DNA of 64,000 nucleotides from Escherichia coli (GCF_044324785.1 NZ_CP172127.1); one strand, 5' to 3'; counted from the first letter of the stretch, positions 10,685 to 12,384 are shown. The notes: generated from the letters alone by a model not told the origin. A program made the numbers and translations.

Positions 10685-11566
10685 TTACATAGATGTTTCG
10701 TTTAATTCTTCCCGACGAACGCTGTAAACGTCGGTTGCTTTTGCCAGCAGTTCGTCATCATCTGAAAGTTTTTGTGCAATGTATTTGTAAGCCTTATCCA
10801 GTTCGGAGACAGTGCTGTAATTCATCGCTGCGCTGGTAAAGGCCATCAGCATTTCTTCTGGATCACGGCTATCCTCTTTACGCGTTTGCTCATCAGGCTT
10901 TTTCATTGGTTTAGCGTTGATCAGACTGTTCATTCCCGCAGCAGTAGTTGTTTGCGGAGTAATGTCTCGTTCAACGCGCGGTGCCGTTTCCTGTAATTCG
11001 TCAGGGGTGTAAACACCGAGAAGTACATCAGGAGCGTGCAGGCGAGCCCATCGTTTCGTGCAAAGATAGGCAAGCTGCTGGCGCGGATCCTGTTCCCACA
11101 ATGGAGAGTTACGCACTCCGGCTTGCGCCATACTGATGGTAAGCTCACGTGGTTCTGCTTCTCCTTTAAGAACTGCTGACACAGTTACCGTCAGATTCGG
11201 TGATTTATCTGTTTTGCCGTTAACATTCGACCAGTCACCGCTCCAGCGATAATTCAGGCGTGTCGCCAGCAGGCTGGAAGAGGATACGACCGCGTTTACC
11301 AACTGTGCTTCGTAGCCTAACGTTCCGTTTACCACATGCGTTTTCTGCGCCACGGCGAAAGGGTTCATTCCCCACTGTGCCGCCTGCATGGTCACCGCCA
11401 GGCAATCGGCAGGTTTGCCTTCAAGATGTTTCGGTACAGTCGCTTTGCTTTGTGACATCAACTCAGCGAAACGCACCAGTTGATTCATGCCCTCGGGGCT
11501 GAAGATTGCCGCAGCAGTGCCTACAGTTGCGCCTGGTTGTGATGTGATTGCGATATCATTGCTCAT
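10685..11566 (-). CDS. single-strand annealing protein, Bet/Red-beta-like
   Basis: 293 aa; AAQWGMNPF and ...ERDITP segments resemble lambda Bet; immediately downstream of the exonuclease gene with a 4-bp overlap. Confidence 0.6.
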   Translation of the reverse strand: MSNDIAITSQPGATVGTAAAIFSPEGMNQLVRFAELMSQSKATVPKHLEGKPADCLAVTMQAAQWGMNPFAVAQKTHVVNGTLGYEAQLVNAVVSSSSLLATRLNYRWSGDWSNVNGKTDKSPNLTVTVSAVLKGEAEPRELTISMAQAGVRNSPLWEQDPRQQLAYLCTKRWARLHAPDVLLGVYTPDELQETAPRVERDITPQTTTAAGMNSLINAKPMKKPDEQTRKEDSRDPEEMLMAFTSAAMNYSTVSELDKAYKYIAQKLSDDDELLAKATDVYSVRREELNETSM

Positions 11567-12384
11567 ACGTACATATCCTGTTTACGTGCCCAGTCAGGGC
11601 GTTTAATAATTTCCACTCCGCCCCACTCATCGTTGATGCGGCATTCGTGATAGGTATTCAGATCCCGGCGGAACAGAGCGTGCCCGGCATCGACATCCGG
11701 CGCATCCAGCTCGAACACGCGTACCGGATACCGACCACAATCAATGCTTTCGCTCACGGCAAGAAAGAAAAAACCATGCGGCTGACCAGTAACCCTCATT
11801 GCGCCTTCGCGGTACATTGCGTCCTGCACGTGGTAGCGGAATTCCTCGATGTGACGTGCAAAACGGTCCATATCTGCAACCTTTTTCACGTCGATGATCA
11901 CGTTGTGCTCGTTCAGCCATTTGTCTGGACGAATTCGGCACAACTCACCCGTCTCTTCATCGTTCCAGTACATTGACGCTTCGCAGTAACCAGGTGCTTC
12001 CAACATCCAGCGTGCCGCCGGGTGAGCCATTGCGCTATCACGCATCAGCTCCAGTTTCCGCCACTGCTCTTCATCAAGTACCGAAATACCCATATCCGCC
12101 ACATCACGAAGAAATGCCTCTTCGTCAGCTTTACCTTGTTTCGTCCGACGATCGAATTTCGGTGAAACAATGAAGCGTTTGTCGAACTCTCCAGGCTCCA
12201 GAAGCAGACAGTGCAATGCGGTTCCCATATCCAGTGCAGACTTTTTCTCTTCGTCTTCTGGTGCTGCCTGAATCCATTTAAGAAGCGCCGGATTCTTGGC
12301 AACCATGTCCAGTTGCGACTTACTCACGCCGTCACCGGCGTGGTAGTCTTCGTTGCTGATGTCGAAATAAATTCCCGGTTTCAT
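11563..12384 (-). CDS. PD-(D/E)XK family exonuclease (RecE/YqaJ-like recombination exonuclease)
   Basis: 273 aa; D...IIDVKK motif; paired with the Bet-like gene. Confidence 0.6.
   Translation of the reverse strand: MKPGIYFDISNEDYHAGDGVSKSQLDMVAKNPALLKWIQAAPEDEEKKSALDMGTALHCLLLEPGEFDKRFIVSPKFDRRTKQGKADEEAFLRDVADMGISVLDEEQWRKLELMRDSAMAHPAARWMLEAPGYCEASMYWNDEETGELCRIRPDKWLNEHNVIIDVKKVADMDRFARHIEEFRYHVQDAMYREGAMRVTGQPHGFFFLAVSESIDCGRYPVRVFELDAPDVDAGHALFRRDLNTYHECRINDEWGGVEIIKRPDWARKQDMYV

Follow-up and report, generated by a model that had tools for sequence, protein, structure and literature searches.

A predicted RecET-type recombination module in a phiV10/ε15-like prophage of Escherichia coli, pairing a catalytic-domain-only RecE-like nuclease with an annealing protein of the RecT/Redβ superfamily

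Two overlapping genes on an Escherichia coli chromosome (GCF_044324785.1; NZ_CP172127.1), one for a putative single-strand annealing protein (SSAP) and one for a putative nuclease, raise the question of whether parts of different phage recombination systems have been joined here into a new kind of module or whether the pair is of a kind already known. An initial annotation, made from the sequence of a 64,000-nucleotide stretch (the whole of which is called the window below), had favored the former reading and described a Bet-like SSAP coupled to a PD-(D/E)XK exonuclease. Here, we report a computational analysis of the two proteins, the operon in which they lie, their relatives in other phages, and the prophage that carries them.

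An open reading frame (ORF) listing returned both genes with exactly the limits first annotated (Table 1). The stop of the nuclease gene shares 4 bp, ATGA, with the start of the SSAP gene (junction sequence, GTATGAGC); on the minus strand, both lie within …TACGTATGAGCAAT…, with the letters ATGA in common, and the stop of the 99-amino-acid (aa) ORF likewise overlaps the nuclease start by 4 bp. The operon runs in the order 50-aa ORF, 99-aa ORF, nuclease, SSAP, AlpA/excisionase (Xis)-like gene, PerC-like gene, and MT-A70 methyltransferase gene, the AlpA/Xis-like gene coming right after the SSAP in the same leftward operon. Both members of the pair have strong family matches (PHROG matches: SSAP, RecT-like, 1.4e-144; nuclease, exonuclease VIII, 1.9e-124) and are therefore real genes and not chance ORFs. 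The ORFs, the ATGA overlap, and the family matches agree with the original description of an SSAP and a PD-(D/E)XK exonuclease in an overlapping operon. Transcription appears to start upstream of the pair, at a sigma-70 promoter-like site just downstream of the repressor-gene terminator. The site is a consensus match of a kind found at background frequency, and its position makes it a candidate early-left (PL-like) operon promoter. The first ORF of the operon has a homolog in 72 of the 80 best related viral loci (IMG/VR).

Table 1. Features of the nuclease/SSAP locus, in window coordinates
Feature	Position	Strand	Remarks
Prophage repressor, two HTH motifs	12989..13573	-	Context gene
Terminator-like hairpin	12968-12949		After repressor gene
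Sigma-70 promoter-like site TTGACA-17-AATTAT	12869..12897	-	10/12 consensus matches
50-aa ORF	12683..12835	-	First gene of leftward operon; RefSeq, hypothetical
99-aa ORF (phrog_856)	12381..12680	-	Acidic, predicted helical
Nuclease ORF	11563-12384	-	273 aa, ATG start
SSAP ORF	10685-11566	-	293 aa, ATG start
AlpA/excisionase-like HTH gene	10387..10635	-	Pfam Phage_AlpA, 3.1e-5; PHROG 66

The nuclease matched Pfam DUF3799 (PF12684; 77.1 bits against a cutoff of 26; E value, 2.3e-21), and the only solved structure that it matched in a PDB search was that of RecE (3H4R; nuclease residues 12 to 268; E value, 1.5e-76). By BLASTP it was 48% identical to residues 601 to 866 of Rac RecE (268 residues, gapless; E value, 2e-90). 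NCBIfam PRK09709 (exodeoxyribonuclease VIII) gave 306.3 bits over model positions 606 to 873 of 877; the full-length equivalog cutoff of 1,269 bits was not reached, and the N-terminal ~600 residues of RecE are absent. In the alignment, with the offset always 594, residues H58, D154, D165, and K167 fall on RecE H652, D748, D759, and K761, which we take to be the catalytic PD-(D/E)XK residues (numbering from the structural and mutational literature on RecE). All four are invariant in 14/14 aligned homologs, as is a QxxxY motif (Q187/Y191). Judged by these matches, the protein is a natural catalytic-domain-only RecE, a predicted PD-(D/E)XK 5'-3' double-stranded DNA (dsDNA) exonuclease, and its 48% identity to 3H4R suggests that it would form a toroidal tetramer with processive 5'-3' dsDNA exonuclease activity. 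Short homologs of 270 to 284 aa are widespread among Enterobacterales (Salmonella, Klebsiella, Serratia, Cronobacter, Pantoea, Yersinia, Photorhabdus, and Xenorhabdus). A C-terminal RecE fragment alone functions with RecT and has long been used in laboratory recombineering (PMC7516269), and RecE from residue 588 onward has been used with RecT (PMC3945230).

The initial annotation had set this nuclease, as a PD-(D/E)XK enzyme, against enzymes of the λ Exo type. λ Exo also has the PD-(D/E)XK fold, so the contrast as worded is false. What stands of it is that the YqaJ domain (Pfam PF09588) is absent from the nuclease (the same model gives λ Exo 106.1 bits) and that BLASTP detected no similarity between the nuclease and λ Exo (E value, 0.11). 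The real contrast between the two nucleases is RecE/DUF3799 versus YqaJ.

The SSAP carries AAQWGMNPF at residues 62 to 70 and ERDITP at residues 199 to 204, the λ Bet counterparts being ANQYGLNPW and an identical ERDITP. It matched the Pfam RecT family (PF03837; 110.1 bits against a cutoff of 24; E value, 1.3e-31) over residues 35 to 197, model positions 2 to 188 of 198. Both λ Bet (115.6 bits) and Rac RecT (188.9 bits) score with this model; the family thus spans the two classical proteins, as has also been stated elsewhere (PMC9772228). The subfamily models left the SSAP unmatched even at an E value of ≤10, both bet_lambda (NCBIfam TIGR01913; cutoff, 76.95 bits), with which λ Bet scores 169.5 bits, and TIGR00616 (rect) and PRK09846, with which Rac RecT scores 415.7 and 464.5 bits. 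Pairwise comparison nonetheless separated the two classical proteins: BLASTP gave an E value of 0.002 over 62 residues with Bet and 0.56 with Rac RecT, hhalign with a 78-sequence SSAP profile gave Bet a probability of 71.5% (E value, 3.6e-5; 53 columns) and RecT one of 0.1%, and in a three-way alignment the SSAP was 28% identical to Bet and 20% identical to RecT. Of the two, Bet is the closer to the SSAP in sequence and in predicted fold. The Bet-like segments first noticed in it (QWGMNPF and ERDITP) do match Bet, and "Bet-like" is a fair word for this similarity but not for family membership, bet_lambda being unmatched. On its profile matches, the protein is classed as a member of the RecT/Redβ superfamily that falls outside both the Bet and the Rac RecT subfamilies.

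Placed by record names and by exclusion, the SSAP probably belongs to a third, EHAP1/enterohemolysin-like branch. The EHAP1-like ("enterohemolysin-associated") subgroup of RecT/Redβ reportedly goes back to Iyer et al. in 2002. In a review (PMC8093625), the EHAP1-like proteins are placed within the RecT/Redβ superfamily as one of its subgroups. The TL-2011b protein that is 98.3% identical to the SSAP is named "enterohemolysin 1," and relatives in SPN9TCW and in Klebsiella prophage records are named "putative enterohemolysin" or "RecT family enterohemolysin"; the exact SSAP sequence stands in NCBI as "recombinase RecT" and in RefSeq (WP_000063825.1) as "RecT family recombinase." The family as a whole is large (6,915 clusters at 50% identity; E value, ≤1e-3). 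Taken at their word, the enterohemolysin names would make the 293-aa protein a toxin or hemolysis factor, a reading to which we give almost no credence against the strong RecT-family HMM match, the Redβ-like predicted fold, the translational coupling of the gene to that of a RecE nuclease, and the place of EHAP1-like proteins in the review just mentioned. The fold prediction, with its soluble α/β core and helical tail, gives no indication that the protein is secreted or inserts into membranes.

An AlphaFold2 model of the SSAP (built with the 78-sequence alignment; pLDDT, 88.7) consists of an α/β core (residues ~17 to 195), a disordered linker (~195 to 235), and a three-helix acidic C-terminal domain (236 to 292). 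The N-terminal domain of λ Redβ (7UJL) was the sole significant PDB match of the model core in Foldseek, and the N-terminal domain of the SSAP is, on this model, of Redβ/Rad52-like fold. Searches of the PDB at the sequence level, with the single sequence or with the 78-sequence profile, returned no relative, so the structural link to Redβ is seen by fold comparison only. Homology searches had been proposed at the outset as a check on both proteins, and they bear out the assignments: Pfam RecT and a Redβ-like predicted fold for the SSAP, DUF3799 and 3H4R for the nuclease. The structure of the Redβ C-terminal domain gave no Foldseek match to the C-terminal domain of the SSAP. Across 150 representative clusters, the core was conserved in 149 and the C-terminal domain in 5, a disparity that fits a partner- or host-adaptor tail. 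The C-terminal domain of Redβ is required for recombination beyond annealing (PMC5052646), and the same domain is reported to bind λ Exo and SSB (reference cited in PMC9772228). By analogy, the C-terminal tail of the SSAP is most likely an adaptor to the partner nuclease and/or the host SSB.

Conservation of the pairing was surveyed in the best 80 related IMG/VR loci (SSAP identity, 52 to 100%). A RecE-like ORF lay immediately upstream of the SSAP on the same strand in every one (80/80), nearly always abutting the SSAP start, and none of these 80 loci held a λ Exo-like ORF (0/80). Among distant members of the SSAP family, P0242 and P0159 (38 to 44% identity) have a YqaJ partner, P0210 is adjoined by DUF3799, and no Pfam-recognised nuclease lies beside P0232 or P0146. 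The pair itself already bears annotations, recET in phiV10 and RecT plus RecE-like in the RefSeq and ZX5 records, and modular SSAP-nuclease combinations have already been described as a textbook feature (PMC8093625). A novel hybrid, in which an SSAP of the λ Bet type was recently joined to a nuclease of another type to give a new kind of module, would account for an SSAP measurably closer to Bet than to Rac RecT and would sit well with a partner nuclease that varies across the wider family (YqaJ, DUF3799, or none that Pfam recognises). We consider it improbable, however, given an SSAP that stands outside the Bet family, a short-RecE pairing that is fixed in the 80 best relatives down to 52% identity and recurs in Gifsy-1 with a long, divergent RecE-like nuclease, and the prior annotations and described modularity given above. 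The mix-and-match reading of the initial annotation is thus abandoned, and the pair is an ordinary, already known module of the RecE/RecT type. A search of the literature returned neither a biochemical nor a genetic test of this pair.

Rac RecE/RecT (E. coli K-12 b1350/b1349) resembles the pair in gene order, nuclease then SSAP with overlapping ends, in a catalytic domain that is 48% identical with the same active-site residues, and in the PF03837 match of its annealing protein. It differs in that our nuclease, at 273 aa, is without the ~600 N-terminal residues (306 versus 1,269 bits), in that Rac RecT is only ~20% identical to the SSAP (BLASTP E value, 0.56; TIGR00616 and PRK09846 missed by the SSAP), and in that Rac RecT is without the three-helix C-terminal domain predicted in the SSAP. 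Likeness to λ Red lies in the QxGxNP(W/F) motif, the PW...ARL...G(V/I)Y..DE block, and the identical ERDITP linker that the SSAP shares with Bet, in the match of the predicted SSAP core to 7UJL, in a helical C-terminal domain after the linker, and in the early-left operon position. In contrast to λ Red, the nuclease here is of the RecE/DUF3799 type (YqaJ/λ Exo in λ), the order is nuclease then SSAP (bet then exo in λ), no Gam homolog can be demonstrated in the locus, and the bet_lambda model does not match the SSAP. Photorhabdus Plu2934-6 was rejected as a precedent; its nuclease is of the λ Exo type, so it is a different kind of module.

The recET genes of Gifsy-1 and Gifsy-2 (Salmonella STM2632/STM2633) belong to the same SSAP clade. 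Gifsy-1 RecT has a core 47% identical to that of the SSAP (E value, 6e-71) with an ERxIxP linker, and its gene directly follows an exonuclease VIII-like gene in an early-left operon. [quoted passage not shown] Activated Gifsy recET orthologs suppress recombination defects (recB suppression) (PMC3121763), which is genetic evidence of function within this SSAP clade.

The "putative recET" of phiV10 (PhiV10p37) and its ε15-like homologs come from phages of the same genus and represent the same cassette: gene order is shared for the 50-aa protein, the 99-aa protein, the short RecE, and the SSAP, after which an AlpA-like gene follows. The phiV10 SSAP has a core 73% identical to ours, with an insertion, and its last ~95 residues are nearly identical; a divergent core with a near-identical tail marks the gene as a mosaic. 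A difference is that the nuclease and the SSAP of phiV10 are recorded as one 592-codon ORF. A natural RecE-RecT fusion was considered for phiV10 and rejected. The single ORF is due to one additional A in the A-run of GCAAA(A)CAGG, shortly ahead of the nuclease stop; this A does not occur in close loci such as L040 and L041 and is most likely a frameshift or sequencing error. It also accounts for the span of the PHROG 561 profile, which covers both proteins.

The conserved, coupled 99-aa gene is the one unexplained element of the cassette. The true start of its protein is MNVNQQ…, as in 99-aa homologs, and its pI is 4.7. In 65 of the 80 best related loci, the RecE-like gene is immediately preceded by a gene for a homolog. 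The AlphaFold2 model is all-helical and of low confidence (pLDDT, 66.6), and no relatives were found by profile search of the PDB, by Foldseek run on this low-confidence model, in Pfam, or with PADLOC. Several identities were tried and rejected. Homology to Gam, raised by a BLASTP match (E value, 0.001 over 33 residues), was dismissed on hhalign probabilities of 14% and then 2.9% with a shifted register, Gam being absent also from the PDB profile searches. A detached piece of the RecE N terminus was ruled out on the lack of any similarity between the two, and a role in a defense system was dropped after PADLOC came back blank for all four proteins. We entertain as a tentative and rather doubtful idea that the 99-aa protein, perhaps with the 50-aa ORF, is a third functional part of the recombination cassette; it could be a RecBCD inhibitor analogous but unrelated to Gam or a substitute, acting in trans, for the RecE N terminus. 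If that were true, a new family of accessory factor would complete a compact RecET system of three parts, in which the SSAP's hypervariable C-terminal domain would act as the adaptor and determine specificity for nuclease and host.

A further account has the nuclease serving mainly in anti-defense or host DNA degradation and the SSAP protecting phage single-stranded DNA (ssDNA), in place of a pair that promotes recombination. Against it speak the processive action of RecE-domain enzymes from DNA ends, an architecture the same as that of genetically proven RecET and Red modules, and the lack of PADLOC matches. Phage nucleases can play such parts, and the coupled 99-aa protein is without an assigned function, but we regard this account, like that of the enterohemolysin, as extremely unlikely.

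Host DNA (xseA, guaB, and guaA) occupies the left end of the window and is followed by an integrase gene and then by the leftward early operon. A 17-bp direct repeat (ATTGAGTGGGAATGATT) occurs at the 3' end of guaA (position 6624) and again at position 47371; these candidate att repeats bound ~40.7 kb, the genome size of phiV10/ε15-like phages. Among complete E. coli genomes, 553 of 5,426 (~10%) contain the region. Its sequence shares 99.5% identity with a chromosome of chicken E. coli, 98.9% with vB_EcoP_ZX5, an isolated phage of the genus Uetakevirus, and 93% with phiV10. The pair is very probably the RecET-type homologous-recombination module of a complete ~40.7-kb phiV10/ε15-like (Uetakevirus) prophage at the 3' end of guaA. 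That the two genes are now functionless, as decaying remnants of a cryptic prophage, would be in keeping with the many E. coli recET loci, such as that of Rac, that are silent in lysogens, but the two ORFs are intact, neither being truncated relative to its homologs, the catalytic residues are kept, the prophage is as large as a complete genome and has direct repeats at both bounds, and an isolated phage carries a nearly identical region; we therefore judge decay very improbable.

For the RecET-type module, the following course of action is proposed. Upon induction, the PL-like early-left promoter would transcribe the coupled cassette (50-aa, 99-aa, nuclease, SSAP, and AlpA/Xis-like genes). 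The nuclease would load on dsDNA ends and, by its His/Asp/Asp/Lys metal site, digest the 5'-ended strand to leave 3' single-stranded tails, to which the SSAP core (predicted Redβ/Rad52-like fold) would bind as ssDNA, annealing it to a complementary strand at a resected end or a replication fork. With its variable, acidic C-terminal domain of three helices, the SSAP would most likely be tethered to its own nuclease and/or to the host SSB, as in λ Redβ. The module may support recombination and recombination-dependent replication of the phage and the exchange of mosaic segments, as has been demonstrated for Redβ, RecT-Rac, and RecT-Φ80 (PMC3945230).

As a discovery, the locus carries little weight, the exact SSAP sequence and the annotation of the pair being already on record and ~10% of complete E. 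coli genomes carrying it. The analysis corrects the misleading "enterohemolysin" and "recET fusion" annotations, and it points to a naturally minimal RecE, reduced to the catalytic domain, whose partner is an SSAP of what is probably a third RecT/Redβ branch; we found no structure and no recombineering test for that branch. The usefulness for recombineering that was foreseen for this putative pair is plausible from its sequence, and the pair with its conserved 99-aa neighbor may offer an E. coli-native recombineering cassette of compact size. With a core that is conserved and a C-terminal tail that is hypervariable, the SSAP family provides a natural data set for partner and host specificity.

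Of 80 related viral loci (the best IMG/VR matches), 65 carry a homolog of a 99-aa protein directly in front of the RecE-like nuclease gene, and in the window the 99-aa gene is translationally coupled to the nuclease gene through an ATGA overlap. The 99-aa protein is acidic and predicted to be all-helical, with an invariant C-terminal motif, (W/L)D(L/M)AD..D..R; searches of Pfam, PDB, and PADLOC found no relatives. Gam homology was tested and was not supported. The 50-aa ORF, first gene past a PL-like promoter consensus, was kept in 72/80 loci.

Features of the prophage and its candidate ends in the window
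Feature	Position	Strand	Remark
17-bp direct repeat ATTGAGTGGGAATGATT	6624-6640 and 47371-47387		
AntA/Ant-type anti-repressor	8115-8765	(-)	leftward arm
MT-A70 adenine methyltransferase	9335-9985	(-)	leftward arm
PerC-family activator	9978-10277	(-)	leftward arm
99-aa protein gene	12381-12680	(-)	phrog_856, 'hypothetical'
50-aa ORF	12683-12835	(-)	
PL-like promoter consensus	12869-12897	(-)	consensus match, TTGACA-17-AATTAT
tRNA-Arg gene	23032-23108	(-)	anticodon TCT

One copy of the direct repeat lies at the guaA 3' end and the other about 40.7 kb downstream, making the pair candidate attL/attR sites of a complete Uetakevirus-like prophage. The anti-repressor, MT-A70, and PerC-family genes, an accessory set typical of such prophages, share the leftward arm with the recombination pair. 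The tRNA-Arg gene is within the prophage, with terminase and portal genes on either side; the near-identical prophage of E. coli strain 2824 carries the same annotation at the corresponding position.

Distant members of the annealing protein (SSAP) family were compared at five loci (L084, L086, L089, L085, and L087; 38-47% identity), where the preceding nuclease was YqaJ in two cases and DUF3799 in one; the other two had no Pfam-recognised nuclease next to the SSAP. Some of these distant members have acidic, SSB-tail-like ends (…DEIPY, …DEIPL), whereas the window SSAP ends in …NETSM. The short RecE also has close homologs of 451 aa (among proteins P0294-P0303; 77-80% identity), in which the C-terminus is extended by a segment that matches Pfam PF10926 (DUF2800); this variant architecture is absent from the window.

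In the phiV10 record (L043 3164-4939, IMGVR_UViG_638276610; also locus L094), one 592-codon ORF labelled 'putative recET fusion' takes in both the RecE-like gene and the SSAP gene, owing to an additional A in the stretch GCAAA(A)CAGG immediately ahead of the nuclease stop codon. This A is missing in close relatives (e.g., loci L040 and L041); a frameshift or an error in sequencing probably accounts for it, and the single ORF likely also explains why the PHROG 561 profile (633 columns) spans both proteins. The SSAP gene is mosaic: against the window SSAP, the phiV10-type core differs (73% identity, with an insertion), whereas the last ~95 residues (linker and C-terminal domain; 10685-10970 (-) in the window) are near-identical, a pattern which suggests intragenic recombination.
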